Of a DNA stretch of 64,000 bases, positions 9,711 to 42,150 are shown piece by piece; position 1 is the first letter of the stretch; every line of letters starts with the position of its first letter. The translations under genes were made by a program, and so were the position numbers. The stretch is from a virus (taxonomy: Duplodnaviria; Caudoviricetes): IMG/VR virus record IMGVR_UViG_3300046694_000619. One strand, 5' to 3'. Below the pieces are notes generated by a model, which worked only from the letters and a program-made list of their open reading frames with translations, searched no databases and was not told the origin of the DNA.

Positions 9711-9753
9711 GCATTTTATGTGGTATAATGTCACCATCCAATCAACGAGTTAA

Positions 9754-11796
<2,043 letters not shown>

Positions 11797-13327: not shown

Positions 13328-15508
13328 ATGGAAATGCAAGCAGACCTGTTGGGTGAGCAGACTTTTGCGGCCGTACACCCAATCACGTTGTTTTCGCGGA
13401 AGAAGTCGGAGTTTCAGCCGGTTGTTTTGGCAGAAGCGCCGGCCGACATCCTGGGCATGCCTGAAGGGGAGCTGGACGAGAAGATTGCCAAAGCGATGGC
13501 CGTGATGAAATGGGCCATGCAGCGCTGGGAAATCTGCTACAGCTATTCCGGCGGCAAGGACAGTTCTACCGTCCTGTCGATGGCACTCGCGGCCGCGGCG
13601 CAGTTGAAGGCCGAGGGTCGCGAGGTGAAGCGCTTTCTCGTGCTCAATTCGGACACGAAGGTGGAGAACCCGGAAGTCAAGGGCGTCGCCACTCTCGAGC
13701 TGGAGCGGGTACGGGAGTGGATTGCGCGGCACGAGCTGCCGGGCGCGGTTGAGGTGACGAAGCCGAACGTGCTCGCCGAATGGGCGGTGCACATCATCGG
13801 CGGCCAGACACTCATCAGCACCCCGGTGACGAACCGCAACTGCACGACTGACCTGAAGACCGTGCCGCTGAATCGGGCTCGAATCCGCTTCTTCGGGGTC
13901 AACAAGGTCGCGCAGGGCAAATTCTCGGTCGGTATGACGGGTGTTCGCTACAGCGAGAGTGCCGAGCGCGCCGCCAACATGGCCAAGCGCGCGGAGTCGC
14001 CCACGCAACTCGTGCAGACCAATGTCGAGCAGGACGTGTATCTCGCGCCTATCGCCAACTGGTCGACCGACGACGTGATGGAGTACATCGGTCTCGCCGT
14101 CAACGACCTGTTGCCGCTCGACATCTACACCGACATGAAGGACGTCTGGCGCATCTACAAGGATGCCGAGGGCGAGTGTACGGTGGGGCGCGGCGACAAG
14201 CCGAGCGATGCGTGCGGCGCGCGCCACGGTTGCTATGTCTGCAACATGGTCCAGGAAGACAAGAGCATGCTGTCGTTTCTCATGCAGGAGCAGTATGCCT
14301 ACATGGAACCGCTGTCGCGCTTTCGTGAGTACCTGAGCAACACGCTGTTCGACATGAGCAAGCGTGCGTGGATGGGCCGCAGCATCACCGATGGCTACAT
14401 CCAGTTCGCACCAGGTTCGTACGCACCCGCGTACACCCAGGACCTGTTGCGGTTTGCGCTGACCATCGACCGGAATGAGCAACTGAAGGCCGCGGAGCTG
14501 GGCGTTGAGCCCCGCTTCCAGATTGTTGGCCCTGAAGCGCTCATTGCAATCGACGCAATCTGGAGTCTCCAAGGATATGCCCGTCCGTATACTGCGTTGT
14601 TCATTTACAACGACGTGTTTGAGAAGGGGCTGAGCTTCGAGATTCCGAAGGTGCCGAAAGCCGAGAAGTGCCCGATGCCGGCGCCGCGCTACATTCCCGT
14701 GAAGGACTGGGATGAGTCGGCAATGGATGTCTACACGGGGCTGCGCAGTTCGCTTCACGAGATGCACGGTGAAGCGGCTTGTGGCGCTACGCGGGAAATC
14801 AACAGCAAGGGCGGCGTGCGGACGGTCATGGACATCGGCACCTCGGACCTCTTTGAGGTTCACGAGGAGTCGGTGGCCATGATTCTCGGGTTCGAACTGG
14901 AGCGGCTGGTCCAGCGCTATCACGATTCGGCTCGAGCGGGCGGTGTGCCTCTGTCGGGAGAGAGCTACAAGTTCTATCTCCAGTATGGGGTCATCAGCCT
15001 GGCGAAGTCGCAGGTCAGCGAGGCCGACCGTATTTTGCGTCGTTCATCCTGGCGCGAACGGCATGGTCTCGCAGGCTACAACTTCGATGTGGCGCGCGCT
15101 CTCTCGATGTCAGTCGAGAAGCCTGAGCCCCTGGTCGAACCGAGCCCGGATGTTATGCGGGCCCAGCGAGACCGGGCGGATGCGGCGGCGCGTGCAGCTG
15201 CGCGCGCGGCCGTGCGTCACCGGACGTTGTCACTGGATGAGCTGTATCGCCAGTGGTCCCCGGATGTGCCGTGGCGTCAGTTGATGAGGATGGGGCTTCC
15301 GAGCAGCAGGCTGTTGTCGCATTGCCTGCACAAGAAAGACCCGGCGTACAGCAACCGACGCCTGAAGGGATGGGCGATTCATCACTTCGTTCGTCTCGGC
15401 CCGCTGGTGGACTTCCTGAAGGCCAATCCTGACATCGCCGAGAAGGTCAAAGAACATCGCAGCTCGCGTCGTCGTAAGGGCTCGCAGATGTTGCTGTTTG
15501 CGGCATAA
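13328..15508 (+). CDS. PAPS-reductase/DndC-like PP-loop protein
   Basis: SYSGGKDSS PP-loop, SDTKVENP, RNCTTDLK, GVRYSESAER, PIANWSTDDV, ARHGCYVC. Confidence 0.85.
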   Translation: MEMQADLLGEQTFAAVHPITLFSRKKSEFQPVVLAEAPADILGMPEGELDEKIAKAMAVMKWAMQRWEICYSYSGGKDSSTVLSMALAAAAQLKAEGREVKRFLVLNSDTKVENPEVKGVATLELERVREWIARHELPGAVEVTKPNVLAEWAVHIIGGQTLISTPVTNRNCTTDLKTVPLNRARIRFFGVNKVAQGKFSVGMTGVRYSESAERAANMAKRAESPTQLVQTNVEQDVYLAPIANWSTDDVMEYIGLAVNDLLPLDIYTDMKDVWRIYKDAEGECTVGRGDKPSDACGARHGCYVCNMVQEDKSMLSFLMQEQYAYMEPLSRFREYLSNTLFDMSKRAWMGRSITDGYIQFAPGSYAPAYTQDLLRFALTIDRNEQLKAAELGVEPRFQIVGPEALIAIDAIWSLQGYARPYTALFIYNDVFEKGLSFEIPKVPKAEKCPMPAPRYIPVKDWDESAMDVYTGLRSSLHEMHGEAACGATREINSKGGVRTVMDIGTSDLFEVHEESVAMILGFELERLVQRYHDSARAGGVPLSGESYKFYLQYGVISLAKSQVSEADRILRRSSWRERHGLAGYNFDVARALSMSVEKPEPLVEPSPDVMRAQRDRADAAARAAARAAVRHRTLSLDELYRQWSPDVPWRQLMRMGLPSSRLLSHCLHKKDPAYSNRRLKGWAIHHFVRLGPLVDFLKANPDIAEKVKEHRSSRRRKGSQMLLFAA

Positions 15509-16355: not shown

Positions 16356-17504
16356 ATGTCTATAAACCTCACAAAGATTGGCGTTTTTTTCGATGGCAGC
16401 TTCTTTCACGGCGTGTCGTCCTACTATTTGAACCAACACCCGCGTCGCTCGCGCATCGCGCTGAGTGGTATTCGCGATTACGCAGCGCATCACATTGCGC
16501 TCGAAGAGGGCGTTCAGCCGCGGCATTGCCGGATTGTCGAGTCGCACTTTTTTGCGGGCCGGATGAACTCTTATGAAGCTCGCGAGCGTGACGGCACACT
16601 TTTTCGCGACCGGGTGTGGGATGAGATTCTCCAGAAGGAGGATGTCACTGCTCACTATATGCCCATGGGATTGCGCGGCGAGAAAGGCATTGACGTGTCT
16701 CTTGCGCTGGAATGCTATGAGTTGGTGACGCTTAAAGGCCTCGATGTCGTCGTGCTCGTGACCGGCGACGGTGACTTTGTACCGCTCGTGCGCAAACTCA
16801 ATGCGCTTGGCGTCCGGGTAATGGTTTTTGGCTGCACATATTCATTCCTCGACAATGCAGGCCGGGAACGTGGCGCCACGGTCTCTCGCTATCTGCTCAA
16901 TGAGGCGACATACCCCGTGCTATTGCACGAGCTCATAGACGGCTACGCAACGCTGCCTGATGCCGAGCGCGCGCTCATCGACGGCCTTTTCCTGAAGAAA
17001 GCGGCAGAGTCGGAAGAGGCATCCGAACTGGCCGCTACCCCGGCCGCCGAAGCGCCAGCCGCAGCCGTGCCAGCTCCCCAACCGGTGCCTGAGGCCTCTT
17101 TCGTACAAGTTGAGACACGGCCGGTGGCTCCAGCAGCACCCGACGTACATCCGCCGGCCATACGCCTGTCCGCCCGAGCAAGACAACCTGTTGTCGACGC
17201 AGGGCCGCCCGCGTCACGCGATTCGCTCGAACGGCTGGCTAAATCAGGATTCGCCAACGGCGCCGGGTCGAAAGAGCCGCCGGCGCGGGACCGGCGTATA
17301 ACCGGTCGTGTGATACGTGTACTCGATGGCTATGGCTTCATTCAGTCCGACGTCACGGATGAAACGCCGTTCTTTCACCATTCCGAAGTGGCGAAACGCG
17401 GCTTCGACCATATTCAGCCTGGCACACCCGTGAGCTTCATTGAGACACAAGGCGACCGGGGAAAGGTCGCGAAGAGTGTCCAACTGCTTGACGAGGCCGC
17501 CTGA
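16356..17504 (+). CDS. NYN (LabA/DUF88, PIN-like) nuclease domain fused to a C-terminal cold-shock domain
   Basis: VFFDGSF, EKGIDVSLA, LVTGDGDFVPLV; C-terminal GYGFIQ...FFHHSEV...V.F. Confidence 0.88.
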   Translation: MSINLTKIGVFFDGSFFHGVSSYYLNQHPRRSRIALSGIRDYAAHHIALEEGVQPRHCRIVESHFFAGRMNSYEARERDGTLFRDRVWDEILQKEDVTAHYMPMGLRGEKGIDVSLALECYELVTLKGLDVVVLVTGDGDFVPLVRKLNALGVRVMVFGCTYSFLDNAGRERGATVSRYLLNEATYPVLLHELIDGYATLPDAERALIDGLFLKKAAESEEASELAATPAAEAPAAAVPAPQPVPEASFVQVETRPVAPAAPDVHPPAIRLSARARQPVVDAGPPASRDSLERLAKSGFANGAGSKEPPARDRRITGRVIRVLDGYGFIQSDVTDETPFFHHSEVAKRGFDHIQPGTPVSFIETQGDRGKVAKSVQLLDEAA

Positions 17505-17575
17505 TGCCCCCCCGGAAGGCTCAGCGAGCTATACCTCGTAGCAGCATGTGCGGTCTAACCAACGAGGAAAAGGCT

Positions 17576-17812
17576 ATGAGCCAGAAGAAGCTGAAGCAGG
17601 TCATCGCGGTTATCACGTTCGAGGACAACGGCGACAATATCCTGGGGTTGAGCGACGCCGCAACATGGCTGGACGGCAAGCTGCGCTCCTCCGGTACTGC
17701 GGTCGAAACGCTCGAAGTGACGACATTCACAACCGCGGCGCACGCGGCGCAAGCCGAGACCGAGCGCTCCGGCGACTTTGCGCTCGACGCAGAACGCCTG
17801 CTCGGGCACTGA
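17576..17812 (+). CDS. hypothetical protein
   Basis: Start revised to MSQKKLK. Confidence 0.6.
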   Translation: MSQKKLKQVIAVITFEDNGDNILGLSDAATWLDGKLRSSGTAVETLEVTTFTTAAHAAQAETERSGDFALDAERLLGH

Positions 17813-17879
17813 ACGTTACAGGAAAGTCCACACCTCTGAGCCACGGATACGCTCCGTGGCTTTTTTACGTCTGCTGCGC

Positions 17880-18125
17880 TCAGAAATCGAAGTTCGGCTT
17901 ACCCGGCTTCGCCTTCCACGCCAGATGGACCCAGCCCGCCGGCACATAGTGGCTCATGCCGGCTGCATCAAGAATCCGGTGACCGCCACTCTCGCTTACC
18001 GCGAGATGCGTGGGAGCGTCGATACGTACCTTCACCACGCCGCCTTTGGCCGAAACAGGAAACGTGTACTCGCGAAACTGTTCGCTCGTGAGGTCATTGA
18101 ACTTGTGAGCAGACTTGTTTTTCAT
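17880..18125 (-). CDS. hypothetical protein
   Basis: Start revised to MKNKSAHKF; upstream TCGACA-17-TATACT promoter. Confidence 0.6.
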   Translation of the reverse strand: MKNKSAHKFNDLTSEQFREYTFPVSAKGGVVKVRIDAPTHLAVSESGGHRILDAAGMSHYVPAGWVHLAWKAKPGKPNFDF

Positions 18126-18420
18126 CGTGTTTGACAGGGTGTGCGTGCGGTCGCGACGCGAGGAATTCAAGGAAGTCGCAGGTTTAGGCTTCCCGGTCAC
18201 AAGTATATCGTAAAAAGGCGTGTTGTCGAGTTTGAGCCTATCAAGGTCGGGCAGCCAGGGAGTGAGTTGTGCTGCCACGCACTTGCTACCTTCAGGTAAT
18301 GGCGTCAGGTGCACGCTCACATCGGGCGGGCTGGTGAGCCTTAGTCGTTTGTTGTGTTTTACGTAAAATGTGCTATAATGCTAGTTAATTATTCAATTTC
18401 TGCCTTCCGAGGAAACGCCC

Positions 18421-19677
18421 ATGTTCTTCCACATCATGCTGGAAATCTTCGAACTGCTGCCGGTGCTGCTCATCATCTGCACAGCAGTCAACTTCCTGCT
18501 GCGCCTGCTCACGAAGGCCGCGCAACCGATGCGCGACTACACCTACCAGCCGAAGGTCAGCGTGCTCGTGCCGGTCTACAACGAGGGCGAGAACATTCTC
18601 AACACACTCAACAGCATCATCAACGCCGACTGGCCTCGCGACAAGCTGGAAATCATCGCGTATGACGACTTCAGCAAGGACGAGTCGATGATGTACGTGC
18701 AGCAGATTGCGGACGCGCATCCGGGCCTGGTTCGGGTCGGCCGCAACCCGGTGAACTCGGGTAAGCACCTGACCGTGCTGAACGCATCCAAGCACGCTAC
18801 GGGCGAGATTTTCATCGTCATCGACAGCGACTGCATCTTCCACAAGGACGTTATCAAGGAACTCGTGGCGTGCTTCGGCGATGAACGTGTCGGTGCGGTC
18901 GGCGGCGCGGTGGGCATCACCAACGTGAACGACAACATCTACACGATGGCGCAGGCCGTGACCTACTTCCGCAGCTTCCAGTTGGGCAAGCTCACGCAGA
19001 TTCTACAGGGTGGCGTCAGCTGCATCAGCGGGTGCCTGTTCTCGGTGCGCGCCTCCGTCTATCGCGACATCGAGGACGACATCAAGAATCTGAACTTCCT
19101 GGGTGTCAAGGTCCGCGCCGGCGAAGACCGGTACATGACGCACACCATCATGCTGCGCGGCTGGCGTACCCTCATTAACCCGAACGCTATCTGCTGGACG
19201 TCGGTGCCCAACAAGTTCGACGTGCTGTTCAAGCAGCAACTTCGCTGGTCGCGCTCGGCGCTGCGTGATGCGATGTGGACGCTGGTGACGCTGCGCAAGA
19301 ACTTCGAAGTCGTGGGTGTCAACCGGACCCTGACGTGGCTCATGCCTTATGTGCTGGCCATCCTCGTGACTTTCTTCGCACTGAGCTGCGTAAAGGTCTA
19401 TGGCCCCGGCGTGTTCTGGAAGGGCGCCTGCTTCGGCCTGATTTACGGTGCCGTGACCTCCATCATGTCCGCGTTGGCCTACAACTACTATGCGCCGCGC
19501 CTGATGCCGGGCTCGAAGAAAATCAGTACCGTACTGGCGGTGGGTCTGTTCCAGGCCTGGGGCCTGATTTCTCTGATGCTGCACTTCATGGCACTGTTTT
19601 CGTTCGACCAGGACGCATGGGGCACGCGGGAGAAGGTAGCGACGCCCGAGCAGGAAGGTGCCACTTCTGCCAATTGA
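18421..19677 (+). CDS. processive GT2 glycosyltransferase, NodC/class I hyaluronan-synthase-like
   Basis: PVYNE, DDFSKD, GKH, DSD, CISGC, GEDRYMT, QQLRWSRS, plus N- and C-terminal TM helices. Confidence 0.9.
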   Translation: MFFHIMLEIFELLPVLLIICTAVNFLLRLLTKAAQPMRDYTYQPKVSVLVPVYNEGENILNTLNSIINADWPRDKLEIIAYDDFSKDESMMYVQQIADAHPGLVRVGRNPVNSGKHLTVLNASKHATGEIFIVIDSDCIFHKDVIKELVACFGDERVGAVGGAVGITNVNDNIYTMAQAVTYFRSFQLGKLTQILQGGVSCISGCLFSVRASVYRDIEDDIKNLNFLGVKVRAGEDRYMTHTIMLRGWRTLINPNAICWTSVPNKFDVLFKQQLRWSRSALRDAMWTLVTLRKNFEVVGVNRTLTWLMPYVLAILVTFFALSCVKVYGPGVFWKGACFGLIYGAVTSIMSALAYNYYAPRLMPGSKKISTVLAVGLFQAWGLISLMLHFMALFSFDQDAWGTREKVATPEQEGATSAN

Positions 19678-19789
19678 AAAACGGGCTGTTAACTTACGCG
19701 TTATTTGCGATAAAGAACCTTTCTGTGGTATAATGCTACTCATCAGTTAAGGTTCAGCCGTTTCCACAACACTATTTGCCGAGAAAATC

Positions 19790-20899
19790 ATGAATACCCG
19801 TATCGCTTCTGCTGGTGGCTTTTTTGCCCGTTTTCAGATGTCAAATTATCAGAGCGGTCTGCTGAAGAGCTATCGCTGGTTCGCCGTCATCATCCTGACC
19901 ACCATCCTCGTGTGTGCGGCGGGCTACGGTATCTCGATGCTCACGTTCGTGGTCAACTCGAGCTGGGTCGCGCCGGTTATCCTGAGCAAGTCCGACCCTC
20001 ACGTCGCGCAGCTCGCAGCCCAGGTGTTCCAGGCCAAACAGAACTACGACCAGATGAAGGGCGAACTGGATAGCGCGGAACAGGCGCGCAACCTGCTGCA
20101 AACCCAGAAAGACTGGCTCTCGGGCATCATCGCCCGCTACGAGCACTCGCTGGGCGACGAGCAGAACGCCAATGCGCAGTTTAACGGCCAGCTGCAAAAG
20201 CTGGTCTCTGAGCGCAAGGCAATCAATGCCCGCTCGGCGCAACTGGTGGCGGCGAACCGTCAGGTGTCGGACGGCATCGACCAGTCGCTCAAGGCCGGTC
20301 TGGTGACTGCGGTGACGGCAACGCAGGCTCGGGCAGGGCTGGTGTCGGCCGAGCAGGCATTGGCGGACAGCAAGGTGGCCGTGGCGACGATTGACAACCA
20401 GATTTCACAGCTGACGCGGGGCGTGCAGTCCCTCGGCGGTGGCAATAGCTCGCCGGAAGCCATGCAAAGCCTCGCCCAGGTCAGTATCCTTAAGCAGGAA
20501 CTGAATGAAACGAACCTGAAGCTCGTGCAACTGAATGCCGACGTGAAGGTTAAGACCAAGGAAGCTATCGAACTGGAGTCGATGCTCAACGGCCTCAAGG
20601 CCAGCCCGTACTACATGGCAGCCTACGGCGACAAGGACATCCGTCGCTTCGCGTTCGTGCCGTACGACAACGAAGAATCTGCACATATCGGCGCTCCGGT
20701 GTACTCGTGCAAGGCTGAAATCGTGCTGTGCTTCAAGGTGGGCCGTGTGAAGGCGATTACGAAGGACGAAGAACACGCACAACACCCGCTGTTCAGCACG
20801 CAACTGCGCGGCGTCCTGGTTGAACTGGACCTCGACGACAGCAAGGCAGCCAAGGACCAGGTTCTGTTCGTCGGTCACAGCCCCTTCTACATCCTCTGA
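19790..20899 (+). CDS. membrane-fusion-protein-like periplasmic adaptor
   Basis: Single N-terminal TM, long coiled coil, beta-rich C-terminus. Confidence 0.6.
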   Translation: MNTRIASAGGFFARFQMSNYQSGLLKSYRWFAVIILTTILVCAAGYGISMLTFVVNSSWVAPVILSKSDPHVAQLAAQVFQAKQNYDQMKGELDSAEQARNLLQTQKDWLSGIIARYEHSLGDEQNANAQFNGQLQKLVSERKAINARSAQLVAANRQVSDGIDQSLKAGLVTAVTATQARAGLVSAEQALADSKVAVATIDNQISQLTRGVQSLGGGNSSPEAMQSLAQVSILKQELNETNLKLVQLNADVKVKTKEAIELESMLNGLKASPYYMAAYGDKDIRRFAFVPYDNEESAHIGAPVYSCKAEIVLCFKVGRVKAITKDEEHAQHPLFSTQLRGVLVELDLDDSKAAKDQVLFVGHSPFYIL

Positions 20900-21091
20900 T
20901 TCTCCAAAGCCGGCCGGGGCCAACGCTCTGGCCGGTTTGTCTTTTTGGCCTATCGAAACAACAGGCCAAACGTATAACATAAAACACGTTTCAAGCACGC
21001 AAATGCGTTGCTGTGCAAGCTGTTTTCTGTTATAATGAAGTCATTAGTAGTTCATCACGAATAACATTAAACGCCGATACGAGGTAGGACC

Positions 21092-22159
21092 ATGCAACCC
21101 AAGTACAAGACGCTCGCCGTCGCAGTGGCGCTCGCTGCCCTCTCGACCTCCAGTTTTGCCGATGAATCCGACGCCTTCTGCAATCTGACGCAGGCTCAGG
21201 CGGAAGTGCAGAAGCAGTTGCTGGGCTCGGCTCGGATGTTTGCTACGACCGGCAACCCTGCAACGGGCAACAGCAGCACGGTTACAGTGGGCTTCAGCAA
21301 GTCCCTGTCGAAGCAGCTGCAGGCCAAGACGACGGGTGAACTGGCGGATGCAACCTGCGACTCGTATCGCGCGGACCGTAAGCTCGCAGAGCAGGCGCAA
21401 AACGTCGAGCAGCGCGGCAACCTCCATGCGTTCGAGGCGATGGAGCCTCTGCTGCGTCAGGCGCTCGATACAGCAAGCGCCAACGTGGCAACGGAAGAAG
21501 CCAAGCTGCGCGCCCATACGGCGACGCTTGCCGACGTCAAGGCGGCCTATGACGCTCGTGACGTGGTGCGCAGCCTCCTGACGGCGCTCCAGCAAACCCG
21601 CAGCCGCATTGCAAACCAGTTGCCCGAAGCCGAAGTGCCGCTCGGCGGCCTGGTGCATGACGCAATCACGGCGCACGCTGCCGTGGCGAGCGAAACTGCC
21701 CATCTGGCCGCACAGTCGGCGTGGGATGTCTCCATCGCGGCCGGCGCACAGACGGACCCAAGGAATGGCGGGACAACCAAGCCGTTTGTCGGCCTCACGG
21801 TCACGTACAGCTTCGGCGCGGGCGCTGCGAATCGCGCGGCGAACACGGTGGCCGGGCTGTCCGAGAAGTATGAAAACGAACAACGCGATGGTCCGCTGCA
21901 GCAGTACATCCGGGCCAAGGAAACGGCGCACGGCCTGATTCAGGCGGAAGAGGGCGTCCTCCAGGGGCTGTATGAGCGCAAGACGCTGGCCGACAACACG
22001 GTCGACCGGCTGAAGGGTATCCAGACCGATGATGCGCAGCGCGCACTGCGTCAGGCGAACCTGGAGCAACTCGGCGTCCAGGCTCAAATCGCCGGTTCCG
22101 AAGCGCGGCTGGACTATCTGCGGCTCTGGATTGCTCGTAACGCGGACCCGCGAGGCTGA
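21092..22159 (+). CDS. secreted coiled-coil protein, putative TolC-like outer-membrane channel
   Basis: Signal peptide (SSFA-D); two repeats of beta-hairpin (STVTVGFSKSL; PFVGLTVTYSF) followed by long helices. Confidence 0.5.
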   Translation: MQPKYKTLAVAVALAALSTSSFADESDAFCNLTQAQAEVQKQLLGSARMFATTGNPATGNSSTVTVGFSKSLSKQLQAKTTGELADATCDSYRADRKLAEQAQNVEQRGNLHAFEAMEPLLRQALDTASANVATEEAKLRAHTATLADVKAAYDARDVVRSLLTALQQTRSRIANQLPEAEVPLGGLVHDAITAHAAVASETAHLAAQSAWDVSIAAGAQTDPRNGGTTKPFVGLTVTYSFGAGAANRAANTVAGLSEKYENEQRDGPLQQYIRAKETAHGLIQAEEGVLQGLYERKTLADNTVDRLKGIQTDDAQRALRQANLEQLGVQAQIAGSEARLDYLRLWIARNADPRG

Positions 22160-22374
22160 CCTGAAGCCTGTCGACTAGCCAGGCGCCAGTGCGAGTTCAC
22201 GTATTGCGCATTTAACGATATACCATAGTAATTAGGCCTTCTTTCTGTTCCTGTTATGTTTGTTTTGTGCTATAATGGGAACCATGCACTGATTAGTTCT
22301 ACTTGCCGGTAGCAGTGCTCGAAAACCACATCATTGCCAGCGCAGCTGGTACAAATTCTACGGGACGTTAGAAA

Positions 22375-23673
22375 ATGAACAAGACTTCGCAAATCGCTAT
22401 CATCGGCCTCGGTTATGTCGGCGCACCGCTCGCGCTGGAGCTGGCCAAGCACAACAACGTTATCGGTTTCGACATCAACGTCGAACGCGTCACGGAACTG
22501 AGCCAGGGGCACGACCGTACTCGCGAAATGGCGAGCGACGAGCTCATGGGCCTGCTCGCAGACAAGCGCCTGATGCTGACGGCCGACGTCGAGAACCTGC
22601 GCGAAGCTGACATTTTCATCGTGACCGTCCCGACTCCGGTGAGCGATGCGAACGTGCCCGACATGGGCTGCGTGCTGGCGGCCACCCGCACGGTCGGCCA
22701 GGTGATGAAGAAGGGCGCCATCGTCGTCTACGAAAGCACGGTCTACCCTGGTGCGACGGAGGACGAATGCCTGCCGGTCCTGAAAAAGGTCTCGGGCTAC
22801 GAATACCCGCAAGAATTTGCAATCGGCTACTCGCCGGAGCGTATCAATCCGGGTGACCAGGTGCACCGCCTGACGAACACGACCAAGATTGTCTCGGGCG
22901 ACCGTCCGGAAGTGCTCGAAACCCTGGCTGCCCTGTACGGCTCGATTACGAACATCCACCGCGCGCCGGCCATCAAGGTCGCAGAAAGCGCGAAGGTGCT
23001 CGAAAACGTGCAGCGTGACGTCAATATCGCGCTCATGAACGAGGCGTACCAGATTTTCAATCACTGCGGCGTGGATACGCACGACGTGCTGGCGGCAGCG
23101 GGCACGAAGTGGAACTTCTTGAAGTTCGAACCGGGTCTGGTGGGCGGCCACTGCATTTCGGTGGACCCGCACTACCTGAGCCACAAGGCCGCAACCGAAG
23201 GCTTCCAGGCCAAGCTCATCATGGCTTCGCGTGCAACGAACGACGCAATGCCCGCGTTCATCGTCGACCAGCTGGTCAAGAAGATGGTCAAGACGGTCGG
23301 GCTGAACCGCGACACGGTCGTGACCGTGCTCGGCGCGACATTCAAGGAAAACGTGCCGGACGTGCGCAACTCGAAGGTCGCGGACATCTGCGAAGAACTC
23401 GGCAAGTACGGTGTGAAGGTGCAGGTCGTTGACCCGCTGGCCAACCAGACCGAGGTCGAGCACGAGCTGGGGCTGACGATGGTTTCGCTGGCAGATGCGC
23501 AAGCGAACCCGGCCGACGCGGTGATTCTCGCTGTGCCGCATCAGGACTTCATCGCCGACGGCGGCTGGTCGCTCATGGAAAGCCTCGCCAAGCCGGAACT
23601 GGCGCTGGTGATGGACTTCAAGGCGAAGCTGAACGCCGAAAACGCTCCGGCTCACCTGCACGTCTGCCGCTAA
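22375..23673 (+). CDS. nucleotide-sugar 6-dehydrogenase (WbpO/TviB-like UDP-HexNAc dehydrogenase)
   Basis: GLGYVG, VPTP, YESTVYPG, YSPERINPG, GGHCISVDP, FKENVPDVRNS. Confidence 0.93.
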   Translation: MNKTSQIAIIGLGYVGAPLALELAKHNNVIGFDINVERVTELSQGHDRTREMASDELMGLLADKRLMLTADVENLREADIFIVTVPTPVSDANVPDMGCVLAATRTVGQVMKKGAIVVYESTVYPGATEDECLPVLKKVSGYEYPQEFAIGYSPERINPGDQVHRLTNTTKIVSGDRPEVLETLAALYGSITNIHRAPAIKVAESAKVLENVQRDVNIALMNEAYQIFNHCGVDTHDVLAAAGTKWNFLKFEPGLVGGHCISVDPHYLSHKAATEGFQAKLIMASRATNDAMPAFIVDQLVKKMVKTVGLNRDTVVTVLGATFKENVPDVRNSKVADICEELGKYGVKVQVVDPLANQTEVEHELGLTMVSLADAQANPADAVILAVPHQDFIADGGWSLMESLAKPELALVMDFKAKLNAENAPAHLHVCR

Positions 23674-23815
23674 TCGCGCAGCCACAACCCCTTTCTATCG
23701 GCAGCTGGAGTGTCCCCTCCGGCATTTTATAGCCCGGCCAAGTGCCGGGCTTTTTTTGCGAACATGAAAAAAGCCGCAGCGAACTGCGGCTCGAGAGGTT
23801 TGAGACGGGTAGTGC

Positions 23816-24112
23816 TTAGACCGGCAAGGCATTCTCGACGGGGGAATCCTCAACGAGCCAGCCGGGAAGACCAGCACGCATGCAGGCAGCCGCGGACGCG
23901 CCACTTGGGCCATCGTCAGGCACCACTTCTACCAGTTTGACGTCGGCGGGGGCAGGAGTCGACCAGGTCTCCATGTAGTCACGCGCGTCAGCTTCGGAAG
24001 GGAAGGTGACTGCCGAGGGCTGACCCGCAGCATCCAGGTTCGTCCAGAAGCCCAGACCGAAACACTCACCCAGGAACACGCCATTCTCTTTGCTATAAAT
24101 GACCACAGCCAT
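23816..24112 (-). CDS. hypothetical protein
   Basis: 98-aa ORF with GGAG RBS. Confidence 0.6.
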   Translation of the reverse strand: MAVVIYSKENGVFLGECFGLGFWTNLDAAGQPSAVTFPSEADARDYMETWSTPAPADVKLVEVVPDDGPSGASAAACMRAGLPGWLVEDSPVENALPV

Positions 24113-24227
24113 TGCATTTCTCCAGTTTTGTCCACGAATTTTACAAGGTACTCACGCAGTATAGGGTTCGCCTGGCGCAAACCCGGGCACCCAGAGAAAG
24201 TGTTCGCATCATCCGCTTGACCGGCGA

Positions 24228-24260
24228 CTATACTTAGATGTAAAATGCGATTAACGATTA
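24228..24260 (+). promoter_or_regulatory. -10 element plus candidate NrtR operator (prs-like gene)
   Basis: ctatacttagatgtaaaatgcgattaacgatta; contains the reverse complement of TAATCGTTAATCGCA. Confidence 0.6.
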
Positions 24261-24286
24261 ACAATCAACCAACAAAAACCATCACC

Positions 24287-25165
24287 ATGAACCACATTGC
24301 ACTGCACTCGTTCACCGCCGAAGGCGACATGACCAGCTACCCGGACATCCAGTTCATGTCGTTCCCGGGTGGCGAGCGCCACGCCCGTCTGCCGGTTGAC
24401 GACATCCTGCTCGCAGGCCCGGTGTCCTTCTGGAGCATCGAAGCGCGCGTATACACGCCGGCTGACATCATGGACCTGATGCTCGTCACGGACGCACTGC
24501 GCCGGGTGATTCCCGCAGGCAGCATACTGAAGCTCGTGATGCCCTACGTGCCGTACGCCCGCCAGGACCGTGTGGCCGTGGACGGCGAGCCGCTCTCGAT
24601 TGCGGTCTTCTGCAACCTCATCAATGCCCTGGCCTTCGACCAGGTCGAAATCTGGGACCCGCACAGCGACGTGACGCCCGCGCTCATCAAGAATGTGCGC
24701 ATCCGTCCGACGCGCGACCTGATGTTTGCTGCGTTCGGCATGAAGGGCGGGGCAAGCCTGCTGCGCGACTGCGCGTTCGTCGCCCCCGACGCTGGCGCCC
24801 GCAAGCGTGTCTCGACGCTCGCCAAGATGTTCAACACCGACGTTGTGTTCGCCGACAAGAAGCGCGACCCGGTAACGGGCAAGCTCTCGGGCGCGCAGGT
24901 ACAGGGCGATGTGCCCGCGAAGCCGCTGCTCGTGGTCGATGACATCTGTGACGGTGGCGGCACCTTCATTGAACTGGCCCGCGTGCTGCGCGAAAAGACG
25001 GACCAGCCGCTGTACCTCTATGTCACGCACGGCCTGTTCACGAAAGGCCTGGAGCCGCTCAAGGCCGCCTACGCTGGCGTGTTCTCGGCGAACTGCCGTG
25101 ATGCAGAAATCGCGAGCCAGCTCGGGATTTTCGAATCGGCTGAACTCGAAGGCGTGAGTTCCTGA
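24287..25165 (+). CDS. ribose-phosphate pyrophosphokinase family protein (Prs-like, candidate ADPR-PP synthetase)
   Basis: FPGGE, PYVPYARQDR, DPHS, APDAGA, VVDDICDGGGTF, YVTHGLF; start revised to MNHIAL. Confidence 0.92.
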   Translation: MNHIALHSFTAEGDMTSYPDIQFMSFPGGERHARLPVDDILLAGPVSFWSIEARVYTPADIMDLMLVTDALRRVIPAGSILKLVMPYVPYARQDRVAVDGEPLSIAVFCNLINALAFDQVEIWDPHSDVTPALIKNVRIRPTRDLMFAAFGMKGGASLLRDCAFVAPDAGARKRVSTLAKMFNTDVVFADKKRDPVTGKLSGAQVQGDVPAKPLLVVDDICDGGGTFIELARVLREKTDQPLYLYVTHGLFTKGLEPLKAAYAGVFSANCRDAEIASQLGIFESAELEGVSS

Positions 25166-25236: not shown

Positions 25237-26163
25237 ATGCCCGAATCGGTGTTGTCCGGCCCCAGCTACGTTTACGCACTCTGTGACCCGCGCAAGCCAC
25301 TTGATGACGCGAGAGGGTTGCCTTACGAGCCGTTCTACATTGGGAAAGGTTCTGAGCGGCGAGTGTTTGCTCACTTTCGGAACGGAGTCTACCAGAACAC
25401 ATACAACCCTCATAAGACGAGGAAGTTGAAGCGAATCCGAGCAGAGTGTGGTCGAGATGCCTTGATAGTGTTTATTCGTGACGGCCTGACCGACGCTGCA
25501 GCATATGAACTGGAGGCTGTCCTCGTCGGCCAATGGGGCCGTCTGAACGATGGTACTGGCGTATTAACAAACGTGACAGCGGGCGGCACTGTTTTGAGCG
25601 AAAAGGCGTACGCGCCCGAAGTTATTCGAAAAGTTGCAGCGAGCCGGAAGGGAATACCGCTGACTGAGCAGCATAAGGAAAGCATCCGACGAAGGGCTAT
25701 CGGTCGTCGGCCTTCTGATGAGACGAAAGAGAAGATTCGCATGGCGCGCCTGACGCGCGCGGTACCGGTCTCCGACGAGACGCGGGAGAAATTGCGAGTG
25801 GTGCATTCGGGCAAGCCTAAGCCTGTGGGCTTCGGGCAACGAGTGAGTGAAGCAAAGCAAGGCAAGCCCAGGCCCGACAACGTAGGCAGGCTGAGTAAGC
25901 CGGTTTCGATGTATGGTGTCGATGGTTTGCTCCTTGCGACATATCCGAGTGCTCGCATTGCGTGGGATGTTACTGGCGTCGACTACAAGGCTATCAGTGC
26001 TTGTTGTACCGGAGCTCAAAAAACCTGCTGGAAGGCCGACAAGTTGGTCACCTTCAGATTCGGGGCGGCGGACGAAATTGAACAATTGAAATTGGCCAGC
26101 CGGGGTCGCCATGTTTGCCGGGCTCCAAGAATTGTCTCAAAGAAGAGGCTGGAGCCACTTTAG
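25237..26163 (+). CDS. free-standing GIY-YIG homing-endonuclease-like protein with NUMOD3-like repeats
   Basis: YVYALCDPR...FYIGKG..R; SDETKEKIR and SDETREKLR repeats; NUMOD1-like C-terminus; AT-richer codons. Confidence 0.8.
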   Translation: MPESVLSGPSYVYALCDPRKPLDDARGLPYEPFYIGKGSERRVFAHFRNGVYQNTYNPHKTRKLKRIRAECGRDALIVFIRDGLTDAAAYELEAVLVGQWGRLNDGTGVLTNVTAGGTVLSEKAYAPEVIRKVAASRKGIPLTEQHKESIRRRAIGRRPSDETKEKIRMARLTRAVPVSDETREKLRVVHSGKPKPVGFGQRVSEAKQGKPRPDNVGRLSKPVSMYGVDGLLLATYPSARIAWDVTGVDYKAISACCTGAQKTCWKADKLVTFRFGAADEIEQLKLASRGRHVCRAPRIVSKKRLEPL

Positions 26164-26342: not shown

Positions 26343-28064
26343 ATGAATGCACCGCACGCACCCGCCGCAATCCCCGCCGCCCTCAAGAACGGCACCATCC
26401 CCATGAATCTCGCGGATTTTTATAAAACCGGGCACCCTGGCATGTACCCGACGGAAACGAAGACGCTGGTGGCAACGTTCACGCCGCGCGGCGACAAGTA
26501 CGCGCCGGTGCGCAACTCGCCGTTCTACGACAAAAAGGTGGTGTGGCACGGCCTGAAGGGCTTCATCAAGGAGTTCCTCATCGACAAGTTCAACGCCGAC
26601 TTCTTCACGATGTCGAAGGAGCAGGCGGTCCGCAAGTTCAAGCGCCGCGTGGACTCGGCCCTGGGCGCGGGCAAGGTCGCGATGACGCAAATCGGAAAGC
26701 TGCACGACCTGGGCTATCTGCCGCTGGAAATCCGTTCGCTGCCCGAGGGCAGTCGTGTGTATATCAAAGTTCCTCCGGTGGTCTTTATCAATACAAATGA
26801 TGCCTTTGCTTGGGTCTCGACCTACTTCGAAACCCTTTTCAGCACGGAAATGTGGAAGCCTTCGACGGTCGCCACCATCGCATTCGAATTCCGCAAAATT
26901 CTCACGTATTTCGCCAAGCTGACGGGCTCGCCGCTGGACTTCGTCAGCTGGCAGGGCCACGACTTCTCGATGCGCGGCATGAGCGGCGTACACGACGCAG
27001 CACGCAGCGGCAGCGGCCACCTGCTTTCGTTCTGGGGCACGGATACCATTCCGGCCATCGACTACATCGAAGACTACTACGGCGCCGACTCAGACGCGGA
27101 GCTCATCGGCGGCTCGGTGCCGGCGACCGAACACAGCGTCATGACGCTGCGCATCCTGCTCGTCACGCAACGCCTGCAGCGCGACCCGGCGAATGCGGGT
27201 ATGGACGGAAAGGCACTGCGCAAGATGGCCGAATTTGAGGTCGTCCGTGAACTCATCGCCGACCTGGTCCCCACGGGCATCATCAGCATCGTAGCGGACA
27301 GCTTCGACTACTGGAACGTCATCACGGACATCCTGCCGCGCCTGAAGGACGTTATCAAGGCACGCAAGCCGGACGAGCTGGGCAATGCCAAGGTCGTCGC
27401 GCGTCCGGATAGTGGCGACCCGGTCAAGATTCTGACGGGCTACCTCAACAAGGAACTGGTCTGCGATGCTGCGGGTACGCCGGTGTTCAGCGAAGGCCGC
27501 TACACGGCGCTGGACGGCACGCGTATCACCGAAGCAGAGCGCAAGGGTTCGGTGGCATGCCTGTGGGATTCGTTCGGCGGCACCATCACGAGCACCGGCC
27601 ACAAGCTGCTCGACCCGCACATCGGCCTCATCTACGGCGACTCGATTACGCTGGACCGCGCAATCGCCATCCTGTCGCGCCTGGCTGCCAATGGTTTCGC
27701 CTCGGGCAACGTCGTGTTCGGCATCGGCTCATTTACGTACCAGATGCTGTCGCGGGACTCGTTCGCCTGGGCAATGAAGGCGCAATACGCAGAAGTCGGC
27801 GACGAAGTTGTCGAAATCTACAAGGACCCGGCAACGGACGACGGCACCAAGAAGTCGGCGGTCGGTCTGCTGCGTGTCGAGAAGGAAGGTGATGACTTCG
27901 TGCTCTACGACCGTCAGACGCGCGAACAGTTCGACCAGGGCGAACTGAAGCCGGTCTTCCGCAACAGCCAGCTGCTCGTCGATGAAAAGTGGGCTGTCAT
28001 CCGCGAACGTCTGCTGTCCTCGTGGGTCTGCCCGGAACCGGGTACCGTCCAGTTCGCAGTCTGA
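26343..28064 (+). CDS. nadV: nicotinamide phosphoribosyltransferase family protein (NadV/NAMPT-like, candidate Namat)
   Basis: DFYKTGH, HDFSMRG, GTDT, VPATEHSV, SIVADSFD, RPDSGDP, IYGDSIT, FGIGS, KDPATD. Confidence 0.93.
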   Translation: MNAPHAPAAIPAALKNGTIPMNLADFYKTGHPGMYPTETKTLVATFTPRGDKYAPVRNSPFYDKKVVWHGLKGFIKEFLIDKFNADFFTMSKEQAVRKFKRRVDSALGAGKVAMTQIGKLHDLGYLPLEIRSLPEGSRVYIKVPPVVFINTNDAFAWVSTYFETLFSTEMWKPSTVATIAFEFRKILTYFAKLTGSPLDFVSWQGHDFSMRGMSGVHDAARSGSGHLLSFWGTDTIPAIDYIEDYYGADSDAELIGGSVPATEHSVMTLRILLVTQRLQRDPANAGMDGKALRKMAEFEVVRELIADLVPTGIISIVADSFDYWNVITDILPRLKDVIKARKPDELGNAKVVARPDSGDPVKILTGYLNKELVCDAAGTPVFSEGRYTALDGTRITEAERKGSVACLWDSFGGTITSTGHKLLDPHIGLIYGDSITLDRAIAILSRLAANGFASGNVVFGIGSFTYQMLSRDSFAWAMKAQYAEVGDEVVEIYKDPATDDGTKKSAVGLLRVEKEGDDFVLYDRQTREQFDQGELKPVFRNSQLLVDEKWAVIRERLLSSWVCPEPGTVQFAV

Positions 28065-40899: not shown

Positions 40900-42150
40900 T
40901 CAGGCCGCGACGGCAACAGGCCTCACCGACGATTTGCGACAAGGCACAATCGTGTCGCGTGTTGGTCCCCACGAGCAAAACGCAACGGGCAACACCCGGT
41001 GGCTGGCCATGAAGACCAGTTCGTCCGGCGAGACTACGTGCGTTTCGGCATCCAGTCGCACGCGCGCCGCCGCGCCAACCTGGTCCAGACATGTCACAGC
41101 CGTCTGTGCGGTGATGTCGATGCGCGCGCCGAACGCTTCGGCTAGGTCAGACCCGATGGCAACTGCAAGCTGGTCCAGGTCCAGGTCGGCGAAGCGCAGG
41201 GACCCTTGGTACTCGTTCGGTTGATTCGTGAGGTCGACAACGCCTTCATAGGGCCGACCAGGCAACTCGTTTGCCAGCGGCCCGGCACCATGCCGCGTTA
41301 GGTACGCGCGGGTCACGTAGGTGACATCCAAGGCCTCGATGCCGGCTTCGCTTGCTACGTCGAGAACGTTGCGAAGCCCCGTGTTCGACCGGGTCACATA
41401 GGGGAATGCACCCTGATGCTGGTCGAGCAGCAGCCCCTGCGCGCCTTCGAACACGACATTGTCCGAGAGCAGGATAGGCGCCGCGGCACCCGACAACAAC
41501 GTGACATCACCCAGGAATTCCTGCGCGGCCTCGATAAAGGCGTCCACCAGCACGTCCGTTGTGCACAGCTTATGATGCTTGCCAAAATCCGGCAGCCCCA
41601 GTTCCTTGATGCGGACGGGCAGGTGGAAATCGCGAATCTCGATGAGTTTTGCGCGCAACGCGTCAACGTCTTGCAGGTCACCAGCCGTCAGCGCAAACGT
41701 GCCGGCTTCCATGCGCCCGATGGTCTCGCCAAAACCCATGCCGCAGCTGCCGTGTCGCTTCGCACCGCGAAAATCCTCGACGAGCTGGTTCACCAGCATG
41801 TCGAAGAAGGTGGTCACTGGCGCGCGCTCGTCCACGTAGAGCGTCGTAAGCTTGCCGAGGAGAGGCAGGAGTTTCGCGCGCTCCTTGAGATAAAGCATGG
41901 GATTGACCGCAAAGTGCCGCGACAGGTACGTCTTCGCGCCCGCGAACGTGCCGGCGCCGAAATGGCTGAAAGCATGTCGCGTGCCGTCCGGCGTGGTGAC
42001 GGTGTGACTCGCCTGGCAGCCACCGTTGAAACGCACGACGAGGCTGTTATCGCTCTGTGACGCGAAGTAATCGGTCATGAGACCCTTTCCTTCATCCCCG
42101 TAGTTCGCGCCGATGACCACTTTTGCCGAGCGCTTGCGAAGCTGTGTCAT
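40900..42150 (-). CDS. adenylosuccinate-synthetase-like protein (divergent PurA family)
   Basis: GANYGDEGKG, RFNGGCQASHT, VFEGAQGLLLD, PYVTRSN, RAYLTRHGAGP, TCLD. Confidence 0.9.
   Translation of the reverse strand: MTQLRKRSAKVVIGANYGDEGKGLMTDYFASQSDNSLVVRFNGGCQASHTVTTPDGTRHAFSHFGAGTFAGAKTYLSRHFAVNPMLYLKERAKLLPLLGKLTTLYVDERAPVTTFFDMLVNQLVEDFRGAKRHGSCGMGFGETIGRMEAGTFALTAGDLQDVDALRAKLIEIRDFHLPVRIKELGLPDFGKHHKLCTTDVLVDAFIEAAQEFLGDVTLLSGAAAPILLSDNVVFEGAQGLLLDQHQGAFPYVTRSNTGLRNVLDVASEAGIEALDVTYVTRAYLTRHGAGPLANELPGRPYEGVVDLTNQPNEYQGSLRFADLDLDQLAVAIGSDLAEAFGARIDITAQTAVTCLDQVGAAARVRLDAETHVVSPDELVFMASHRVLPVAFCSWGPTRDTIVPCRKSSVRPVAVAA

Follow-up and report, generated by a model that had tools for sequence, protein, structure and literature searches.

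A compact synthase, adaptor, and TolC-fold channel cassette as a putative exopolysaccharide secretion machine of Acidobacteriota, mobile elements, and tailed phages

In this report we describe a small gene cassette found in a 64,000-nucleotide stretch of DNA (the window) from the IMG/VR virus record IMGVR_UViG_3300046694_000619. We propose, with a probability of about 0.7, that the locus encodes a tripartite synthase-dependent machine that makes and exports an exopolysaccharide. Its four genes all lie on the plus strand. The first would specify a glycosyltransferase family 2 (GT2) synthase of 418 amino acids (18421..19677) resembling hyaluronan synthases (HAS), chitin synthases (CHS), and NodC, and the second a periplasmic-adaptor-like protein of 369 amino acids (19790..20899) of the membrane fusion protein (MFP) kind. 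They are followed by a gene for a predicted minimal TolC-fold outer-membrane factor of 355 amino acids (21092..22159) and by one for a TviB/WbpO-like nucleotide-sugar 6-dehydrogenase of 432 amino acids (22375..23673), of the type acting on uridine diphosphate (UDP)–N-acetylhexosamine (HexNAc). The first three genes, not all four, are the conserved unit, an old and autonomous module of about 1,140 residues with its own channel gene. The module is chromosomal in many Acidobacteriota, whereas in Burkholderiales it rides giant mobile elements, where it has acquired the dehydrogenase and, in part of the cases, a GH16 glycanase as well.

Conservation and distribution of the cassette

The four open reading frames (ORFs) exist where the initial annotation had placed them, and the motifs quoted from them are real, as the ORF list and the translations agree. 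Their third-position GC content (0.76–0.85) matches what genuine genes should show in this replicon, whose overall GC is about 60%. Since all four proteins also have homologs in conserved synteny elsewhere, the cluster is far more than a run of chance ORFs.

A scan with the adaptor alignment, using one genome per species, found relatives in 190 genomes. The 80 loci that were kept comprise 74 from Acidobacteriota, two from Verrucomicrobiia, and four from Burkholderiales (Caballeronia, two Acidovorax, and Xylophilus). Close homologs of genes 2 and 3 occur in Paraburkholderia, Caballeronia, and Burkholderia ubonensis, and cultured strains with the cassette belong to Granulicella, Acidovorax, Caballeronia, Paraburkholderia, and B. 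ubonensis. The expectation that the genes would co-occur elsewhere was borne out. GT2 adjoins the adaptor gene in 88 of 89 loci (all of them found via the adaptor), and in a profile search the channel gene adjoins the adaptor in every one of the 85 loci that are not cut off. Median gaps within the module are near zero across loci, and the linkage persists where the genes have been reordered, as in Caballeronia (L007) and on a plasmid of Paraburkholderia sp. PGU19. Clustering of the flanking ORFs of the 89 loci revealed no other conserved family, and no conserved regulator gene, around GT2, adaptor, and channel; the conserved unit is thus these three genes. Of the four-gene system first proposed, the core recurs across loci and stands, whereas the dehydrogenase is optional and confined to proteobacterial loci.

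Bona fide tailed phages carry the module as well. The adaptor scan of IMG/VR returned three records, two of which have direct terminal repeats and are rated 100% complete. Terminase large subunits are encoded by both the larger (322,512 bp; G005, L088; 2.7e-117) and the smaller (111,514 bp; G006, L089; 6e-39), alongside a major head protein in the larger (1.6e-100) and a portal protein in the smaller (8e-20); it is these complete genomes with terminase and portal or head genes that establish the phage carriers. All three cassette genes are complete and adjacent in the 111-kb phage; the record of the 322-kb phage ends within the channel gene. The third record is a 36-kb fragment with a primase-helicase and an ATP-dependent ligase. 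A separate search of the phage record collection gave no match with the whole-locus DNA or the channel protein, and only distant PgaC-like genes with the GT2 protein.

Beside the module, the two complete phages encode an ATP-dependent ligase, GTP cyclohydrolase I, a TnpB-like protein, and an RlaP-like protein. Their fetched loci have a GC content of 47–51%, which makes Burkholderia and typical Acidobacteriota improbable hosts.

The window itself was considered as a free phage genome or prophage on account of its Prs-like/NAMPT-like gene pair, ligase, and homing endonuclease. This reading was not retained as a firm assignment because an identical channel protein occurs on contigs of up to 720 kb. 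In B. ubonensis the syntenic order runs NAD-ligase, DndC-like, NYN–cold shock domain (CSD), GT2, adaptor, channel, dehydrogenase, Prs-like, and NAMPT-like. Identity between window and B. ubonensis is 44–53% for the three core proteins and 61–92% for the surrounding enzymes. The envelope trio is the most diverged part of the block shared with this B. ubonensis locus (L002), and the dehydrogenase (88%) and the NAMPT-like protein (92%) are the most conserved; faster evolution of surface parts or replacement of the module could account for the divergence. Another Paraburkholderia has the three genes by themselves, with a type I restriction gene on one side and transposases on the other.

The initial annotation had also stressed what is absent, and here too the searches agree. 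Among the larger ORFs of positions 7950-34118 scanned with Pfam and NCBIfam (smaller ORFs being unscanned), no NodA/B, PgaA/B, Wzx/Wzy, or ATP-binding cassette (ABC) transporter was found. The same model collections detect no cyclic di-GMP (c-di-GMP) module (PilZ, the BgsA C-terminal domain, or MxdA) in the four cassette proteins. Neither a tetratricopeptide repeat (TPR) scaffold nor a beta-barrel porin (BcsC, PgaA, AlgK/E, or PelB) was found among the scanned window neighbors, and none is conserved near the module across the 89 loci. A reading of the cassette as a defense system finds no support, as PADLOC models match none of its four proteins.

The GT2 synthase

The translation of the first gene contains GEDRYMT and QQLRWSRSALRD. 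Pfam assigns it to Glyco_tranf_2_3 (5.4e-31) and Chitin_synth_2 (4.2e-18, residues 126-408), and its top NCBIfam models are NodC (TIGR04242; 130.1 bits against a cut-off of 550) and PgaC/IcaA (TIGR03937; 118 bits against 422.3). As the protein falls outside both the NodC and the PgaC equivalogs, in a separate family, its product is not readable from homology.

Among PDB structures, the best-aligned polymer synthase is the chlorovirus hyaluronan synthase (7sp7 and related; 1.4e-19), with a likeness that spans only about 200 residues; a Pyrobaculum membrane GT2 structure scores slightly higher, over the N-terminal half of the protein only. In the alignment, IDSD, CxSGxL, GEDR, and QQLRWSRS..RD of the cassette protein fall on the HAS motifs (IDSD, GDDR, and QQxRWS in HAS). 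Across 86 aligned family members drawn from related loci, the DSD, the GEDR..T block, QQxRW..S..RD, and the C-terminal WGTR are each at least 95% conserved. In the window protein these motifs lie at D135-S-D137 (invariant in the family alignment), 234-237 (GEDR), 272-276 (QQLRW), and 400-403 (WGTR). WGT(R/K) is the gating-loop signature common to class I hyaluronan synthases and chitin synthases. Hydropathy places hydrophobic segments at 9-27, 306-324, about 335-353, and 371-389, i.e., one N-terminal and three C-terminal segments around a cytoplasmic GT-A domain. As a lead only, a language-model atlas puts the protein among bacterial clusters labeled hyaluronan synthase or chitin-synthase-like. 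The sequence supports membership of the processive HAS/CHS/NodC group, and the NodC/HAS-like label originally given to the gene is correct: DxD, GEDR, QQxRW, and WGTR are present and conserved, and the Pfam families are those of GT2.

The strongest rival to a polymer-exporting machine starts from this same kinship. The cassette could secrete short chitooligosaccharide-like signals, as NodC does, with the adaptor and channel releasing them, perhaps toward plants or microbes in the rhizosphere. NodC is indeed the best curated model (130 bits), the GT2 is NodC-like in size and in its 1+3 hydrophobic segments, the source is rhizosphere metagenomes, and the same question has been raised for bacterial chitin-synthase homologs (PMC5122149). 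Yet we consider this unlikely: the NodC score is far under the cut-off of 550, with PgaC and HAS scoring similarly; nodA/nodB-type modifying genes and a NodIJ-type transporter are missing among the scanned larger ORFs; and the carriers are mostly free-living Acidobacteriota and some phages. Moreover, processive extrusion would better account for a trans-envelope duct of the cassette's own and for the conserved gating-loop motif WGTR, which brings us back to export of a polymer and to the two proteins that would form its path.

The TolC-fold channel

An alignment of 16 homologs of the third protein shows a signal peptide, two invariant cysteines, and long helical stretches, as well as two glycine- and aromatic-rich alternating stretches of the kind that membrane beta-strands would show. 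The AlphaFold2 (AF2) model built from it has a mean predicted local distance difference test (pLDDT) score of 81.7 and follows the order helix, strand, strand, 69-residue helix (72-140), helix, twice over. This matches the element order of TolC (H2-S1-S2-H3-H4 and H6-S4-S5-H7-H8), and the twofold repeat of helix, two strands, and long helix would give four barrel strands and an alpha-barrel of about 100 Å per protomer. An equatorial domain is lacking, the model having just a 7-residue link (177-183) and a 6-residue tail. The mature protein has about 332 amino acids; TolC has about 430 structured residues.

At the level of sequence the family is an orphan. No member of the 16 matches the Pfam family OEP (PF02321) at E≤1, Pfam yields nothing beyond coiled-coil noise for the members of either orphan family (a spurious ParM_N match in one of them included), and a PDB sequence search with the channel protein found nothing meaningful. 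An exhaustive profile search nevertheless gathers 501 cluster representatives, mostly of about 350 amino acids. The model thus speaks for a protein that is TolC-like at fold level, from a minimal subfamily, and presumably a homotrimer. This agrees with the earlier proposal of a TolC-like product of 21092-22159, and the signal peptide and two helix/hairpin repeats reported for it are recovered as a cleavable-looking signal peptide and the twofold repeat of the model.

The periplasmic adaptor

The second protein has one hydrophobic, membrane-spanning segment (33-51), after which helix is predicted for about 200 residues, just as the membrane-anchor and coiled-coil makeup first ascribed to it would have it. 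Its AF2 model (pLDDT 76.5) consists of a membrane helix, a strand (59-63), an alpha-hairpin (70-270), and further strands (287-361). The hairpin comprises a 99-residue helix (70-168) and a return helix with one break, about 100 residues per arm. The C-terminal beta domain is small, about 80 residues, and holds two invariant cysteines. In the model, segments of the beta domain lie on both sides of the hairpin, as in the layout of HlyD, EmrA, MacA, and AcrA.

Structure searches point to true adaptors. The top Foldseek match in the PDB is EmrA (4tko; E 5e-6, 307 columns), and MacA and the EmrA chains of EmrAB-TolC rank lower, amid many coiled-coil proteins. A shape search of the ESM Atlas lists three unnamed clusters and then, in rows 4–10, HlyD, CusB, and adaptors of the resistance-nodulation-division (RND) type, with template modeling (TM) scores of 0.41–0.50 over residues ~50-369. 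The list of an alternative aligner is dominated by coiled coils. Sequence comparisons added no support: no adaptor Pfam family appears at E≤1 in 24 members of the gene 2 family (coiled-coil noise only), the probability in hhalign is at most 12% when the family is compared with 14 canonical HlyD_3 adaptors of three carrier genomes, a PDB sequence search found nothing meaningful, and a language-model lead to a HlyD cluster scores only 0.75. A complex prediction for synthase and adaptor scored 0.01, where 0.32 was the mark, and speaks neither for nor against their contact. We regard an EmrA/HlyD-type periplasmic adaptor as moderately supported by the model, and the MFP-like label proposed for gene 2 is retained at that strength.

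Within the helical region, conservation peaks at the hairpin tip, L-x-A-G-L-(I/V)-T (167-173), which fits a docking surface. TolC-binding adaptors have an R-x3-L-x6-S tip motif; the tip found here, L167-x-A-G-L-(I/V)-T173, has no Arg and a different spacing.

These features bear on a second alternative, in which gene 2 encodes a co-polymerase or regulatory partner (of the Alg44, BcsB, PgaD, or Wzz type), the polymer crosses the periplasm freely, and the channel is a simple porin. The protein lacks a sequence-level link to adaptor families, the canonical tip motif is not matched exactly, and an MFP-like periplasmic domain also occurs in Alg44, whose system is not of the TolC type (PMC8892547). 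Against this, a TolC-fold protein opens only to a periplasmic partner and a 100-Å periplasmic tunnel would be pointless in a free porin, the tip is the best conserved portion of the helices, and the top structural match is the true adaptor EmrA. A Wzz/Wza-type reading in particular was rejected: Wzz-type proteins have two membrane segments but the adaptor has one, and the channel matches TolC rather than Wza. We rate a co-polymerase role a little less likely even than secretion of oligosaccharides, and prefer an adaptor that docks on the channel.

The dehydrogenase and the possible product

The fourth protein has the three UDPG_MGDP_dh Pfam domains (N-terminal, central, and C-terminal), and its translation shows GLGYVG (the nicotinamide adenine dinucleotide (NAD) site) and GGHC (with the catalytic Cys). 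It passes the NCBIfam subfamily model for nucleoside diphosphate (NDP)–sugar dehydrogenases (379 bits; cut-off 189.8). The best model is TviB (8.5e-127; 423.5 bits, below the equivalog cut-off of 592), followed by those for UDP–N-acetylmannosamine (ManNAc) dehydrogenases; UDP-glucose dehydrogenase models reach only 49.8 to 165.8 bits. Its relatives in the PDB are Cap5O and the dehydrogenases that form the uronic acids of UDP-ManNAc and UDP–N-acetylgalactosamine (ManNAcA and GalNAcA). The WbpO/TviB-type assignment made earlier is thus upheld, with HexNAc-type models outscoring those of the UDP-glucose type.

The dehydrogenase accompanies the module only in proteobacterial loci, where it does so in at least four gene orders. 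GT2, adaptor, channel, and dehydrogenase follow one another in the window, B. ubonensis, Acidovorax, and Xylophilus; in Caballeronia (L007) the order is channel, dehydrogenase, GT2, and adaptor. On plasmid p2 (1.44 Mb) of Paraburkholderia sp. PGU19 (L104, 2943-11385), adaptor, channel, dehydrogenase, GH16, and GT2 come after a resolvase and an EAL gene, and in a metagenomic locus (L004) the order is GH16, GT2, adaptor, channel, and a dehydrogenase nearer the UDP-ManNAc type. That HexNAc-type dehydrogenases have repeatedly been linked to the module points, indirectly, to a HexNAc-uronic acid donor in these versions. The GH16 genes of the two last-named loci are candidate glycanase partners and a hint on linkage type; by analogy with BcsZ, GH16 may be the system's glycanase. 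In the acidobacterial loci, which come without dehydrogenase and GH16 accessories, the product may differ.

Hyaluronan synthesis requires UDP-glucuronic acid. Since the dehydrogenase is of the UDP-HexNAc and not of the UDP-glucose type, a polymer of HexNAc and HexNAc-uronic acid is a better guess than hyaluronan for the window element, although we hold this identification tentatively, at less than even odds. Of the hyaluronan-like or poly-HexNAc-uronic acid product suggested initially, the hyaluronan half is not indicated and the other half fares better.

The proposed machine and its weak points

The following picture would unite these parts. In the cytoplasm, the TviB-like dehydrogenase would oxidize UDP-N-acetylhexosamine to its uronic acid. 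In the inner membrane, the 418-amino-acid GT2 would polymerize UDP-sugars and thread the chain via its own membrane segments, as family knowledge suggests. The single-pass adaptor would ring the exit and dock its alpha-hairpin of about 145 Å on the channel's alpha-barrel of about 100 Å. Judged by their folds, dimensions, and strict linkage, adaptor and channel would form a continuous duct to the cell surface without an ABC, RND, or major facilitator superfamily (MFS) pump. The modeled lengths of hairpin and barrel are consistent with a span of the periplasm without a periplasmic pump domain. EmrA and HlyD span the periplasm for pumps that have no periplasmic domain, and a synthase without such a domain would need a long-hairpin adaptor of just this sort. 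The coupling of a GT2 gene to MFP-like and TolC-fold genes, as in systems of the Bgs/Xcs/Mxd type, is found in 85 of 85 untruncated loci and in rearranged ones; in a system of this type, secretion would depend on the channel. The polymer could serve as biofilm matrix, capsule, or surface masking for the mobile element; receptor masking, phage exclusion, and immune evasion are speculation.

Several points weigh against such a machine. In the window, the genes are widely spaced (intergenic gaps of 112–215 bp) and a terminator-like hairpin sits between the second and the third, so that any co-transcription there is conjectural. Compared with solved structures, the monomer models reach modest TM-scores of 0.35–0.48 at a root-mean-square deviation (rmsd) of 8–11 Å (about 8 Å for the channel). 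For the channel, we attribute the high rmsd to modeling as a monomer a chain whose curvature belongs to a trimer; the value nevertheless calls for caution. The trimeric state of the channel and the adaptor-channel and adaptor-synthase contacts are predicted only. NodC, the best-scoring curated model of the synthase, yields short oligomers and not a polymer. A polymer as the product is a prediction from the genes. Finally, most loci of the family have no dehydrogenase and two variants have GH16, so the product need not be uniform across the family.

A third alternative, that GT2 glycosylates a lipid or other small acceptor and that adaptor and channel export the glycoconjugate, as DevBCA-TolC does for heterocyst glycolipids, is very improbable: the weak matches that speak for it, to HpnI (48 bits) and ceramide glucosyltransferase structures (1e-6), are much weaker than those to HAS, NodC, and PgaC, the processive-synthase signatures QQxRW and WGTR are nearly invariant, and no ABC or other energized pump that could drive export of a detached glycolipid was found at the module.

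Comparison with known systems

The initial annotation took Gram-negative synthase-dependent export to run through TPR and beta-barrel proteins. This view is incomplete, and a synthase feeding a TolC-type duct is not a new concept, with precedents in BgsAB-TolC (PMC13438883), cyanobacterial Xcs (PMC8892547, PMC12430437), and, implicitly, Shewanella Mxd (PMC3691769). Literature searches found no description of the GT2-adaptor-channel cassette itself. Its novelty lies in the HAS/CHS/NodC-like synthase, the orphan adaptor and channel, the channel gene within the cassette, the lack of a c-di-GMP module, and mobility.

The closest precedent is the mixed-linkage beta-glucan system of Sinorhizobium meliloti, in which a tolC mutation abolishes production by BgsA-BgsB and a tripartite complex has been proposed (PMC13438883). 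Both systems would thus share a tripartite synthase-adaptor-channel organization, the TolC-type outer-membrane channel being genetically required in Bgs. They differ in that BgsA is cellulose-synthase-like, with seven transmembrane segments and a C-terminal c-di-GMP domain, whereas the cassette GT2 is HAS/NodC-like with no regulatory domain detected. In addition, Bgs uses the housekeeping TolC encoded elsewhere, whereas the cassette has a dedicated minimal TolC-fold gene, and the adaptor and channel of the cassette match no Pfam family.

For cyanobacterial cellulose, a model of XcsA, the HlyD-like XcsB, and TolC goes back to Maeda et al. 2018, as presented in PMC8892547 and PMC12430437. PMC12430437 describes a model without experimental validation, with TolC outside the operon and operon-organized cases as an open question. 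In this model, an adaptor and a TolC-like exporter replace BcsB and BcsC, and the synthase takes the pump's place, which is the arrangement proposed here. On the same accounts, XcsA carries a PilZ domain and is homologous to BcsA, the TolC gene lies outside the operon, and the endoglucanase XcsC is part of the system, whereas GH16 occurs in some cassette variants only. In Shewanella oneidensis, the mxdABCD operon combines the membrane GT2 MxdB with the efflux-pump-like MxdC and is needed for matrix and biofilm formation (PMC3691769). By this description its pairing of a GT2 with an efflux-pump-like protein can be set beside the cassette; Mxd differs in having the c-di-GMP-linked MxdA and the uncharacterized MxdD, whereas no regulator gene was found for the cassette.

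Viruses offer the second set of parallels. Chloroviruses encode hyaluronan or chitin synthases plus precursor enzymes. The chlorovirus HAS is, like the cassette GT2, a small synthase believed to translocate its product, with DSD, G(D/E)DR, and QQxRWS aligned and WGTR conserved, and in both cases large viruses or mobile elements carry the synthase along with a nucleotide-sugar dehydrogenase. The cassette dehydrogenase is, however, of the UDP-HexNAc and not the UDP-glucose type, and the cassette adds Gram-negative outer-membrane export parts. In fungi and algal viruses, a CHS-like protein and a UDP–N-acetylglucosamine (GlcNAc) 6-dehydrogenase form a conserved pair that moves horizontally via large viruses (PMC4059230). 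The two may act in concert, and this class of dehydrogenase makes the UDP-GlcNAc-uronic acid (UDP-GlcNAcA) precursor for glycosyltransferases (PMC4059230). In gene content the pair resembles the cassette, as a CHS-like GT2 adjoins a dehydrogenase, but it is eukaryotic or viral, comes without envelope-spanning export parts, and has an uncharacterized product.

With the cellulose (BcsABC), poly-N-acetylglucosamine (PNAG; PgaABCD), alginate (Alg8/44/K/E), and Pel systems, the cassette shares an inner-membrane processive GT2 that couples synthesis to translocation (118 bits for PgaC). Those systems, most of them c-di-GMP-responsive, rely on a TPR scaffold and a beta-barrel porin; no such part was found for the cassette.

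Expression signals

The consensus extended -10 sequence TGTG(G/C)TATAATG occurs five times in the 64 kb against 0.33 copies expected, a number reached in 0 of 100 shuffles. Four of the copies sit 42–99 nt upstream of the four cassette genes, one each, on the plus strand. These extended -10-like elements, putative promoters, are TGTGCTATAATG at 18369..18380 (42 nt before the GT2 start codon), TGTGGTATAATG at 19724..19735 (56 nt before the adaptor gene), TCTGTTATAATG at 21026..21037 (56 nt before the channel gene, with one mismatch to the motif), and again TGTGCTATAATG at 22266..22277 (99 nt before the dehydrogenase gene). The fifth, TGTGGTATAATG at 9719-9730, precedes the gene for NAD-dependent DNA ligase (9760-11796) by 31 nt. 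The motif CTATAC is also abundant in the window (25 copies; 5.5 expected); it was rejected as a cassette promoter class because none of its copies is upstream of any cassette gene. An extended -10 element for each gene suggests strong expression by the host sigma-70, independent of CTATAC-type sites. The cassette genes may accordingly be read as individually promoted, unlike the tightly packed acidobacterial ones. The B. ubonensis loci retain the element only partly.

Three terminator-like hairpins lie on the plus strand around and within the cassette. The first (17838..17862; a 10-bp stem and a T run, a consensus match only) follows the ORF 17504-17812 and would close the upstream unit. The second (20907..20938; a 14-bp stem with nine GC pairs and a T-rich tail) is the putative one between adaptor and channel genes, and the third (23731..23751; an 8-bp stem with seven GC pairs, then T7) marks the cassette end. 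Rfam detected no riboswitch in 17400-24400 and gave only sub-threshold small RNA matches over 23663-23757, which probably reflect only the hairpin at the cassette end.

Signaling genes near the module were found only in some relatives: the EAL gene of the PGU19 plasmid variant, and, as the commonest extras overall, a sigma-54-dependent activator in 14 loci and a histidine kinase in 10, lying 2–4 kb upstream in some Acidobacteriota (e.g., L012, 3589-6565). The latter two are possible regulators of the module in those Acidobacteriota.

Neighboring genes

Close upstream of the cassette, the window encodes a 726-amino-acid DndC/PAPS-reductase-like protein (13328-15508; DndC model in the 1e-40 range, below the cut-off) and a fusion of NYN nuclease and CSD (16356-17504). 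Both have counterparts at the same place in B. ubonensis, where a Thg1-like gene is inserted before GT2.

Downstream, a Prs-like ribose-phosphate pyrophosphokinase (24245-25165; phrog_619, 1e-76) and a NAMPT-like phosphoribosyltransferase (26343-28064; phrog_448, 1.7e-178; PRK09198, 510 bits) flank a GIY-YIG/NUMOD homing-endonuclease-like gene (25237-26163). The pair resembles phage NAD+ reconstitution pathways that counter NAD-depleting defense. In B. ubonensis it occurs without the endonuclease and is followed by an NrtR-like regulator. A second B. ubonensis assembly (L003, 15664-20895) has Phage_integrase and Integrase_2 genes and small ORFs directly after the NAMPT-like gene. As L002 has the NrtR-like regulator and element genes at the stretch of this integrase pair, the difference looks like an insertion polymorphism inside the giant element. 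Farther on, the window encodes a divergent adenylosuccinate synthetase homolog (40900-42150; Pfam 5.9e-42), which adjoins an 807-amino-acid protein with a weak TerD match.

Significance

The TPR-plus-porin arrangement is the sole well-described route across the periplasm and outer membrane for synthase-made polymers, and the TolC-type route has so far been a genetic proposal. Being compact, with its own channel gene and neither regulator nor pump, and available in cultured strains, the cassette is a practical system for reconstitution and for cryo-electron microscopy of a complex of synthase, adaptor, and channel. With it come two protein families outside Pfam, one of them a predicted TolC fold without the equatorial domain.

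The presence of the cassette in complete phage genomes and in giant Burkholderiaceae elements makes a surface-remodeling role worth testing. In its boldest form, which we find rather doubtful, the proposal is that giant mobile elements and tailed phages (a jumbo phage of 322 kb among them) carry a widespread minimal trans-envelope machine, in which a synthase of HAS/NodC size replaces the pump and two orphan partners suffice, in order to coat the cell they have entered with an acidic, chitin-like polymer of HexNAc and HexNAc-uronic acid, for surface remodeling or for exclusion of phages and other elements. If true, this would be a bacterial counterpart of the hyaluronan and chitin synthesis encoded by chloroviruses, and mobile elements would rewrite the surface chemistry of Gram-negative bacteria by means of a portable secretion machine.

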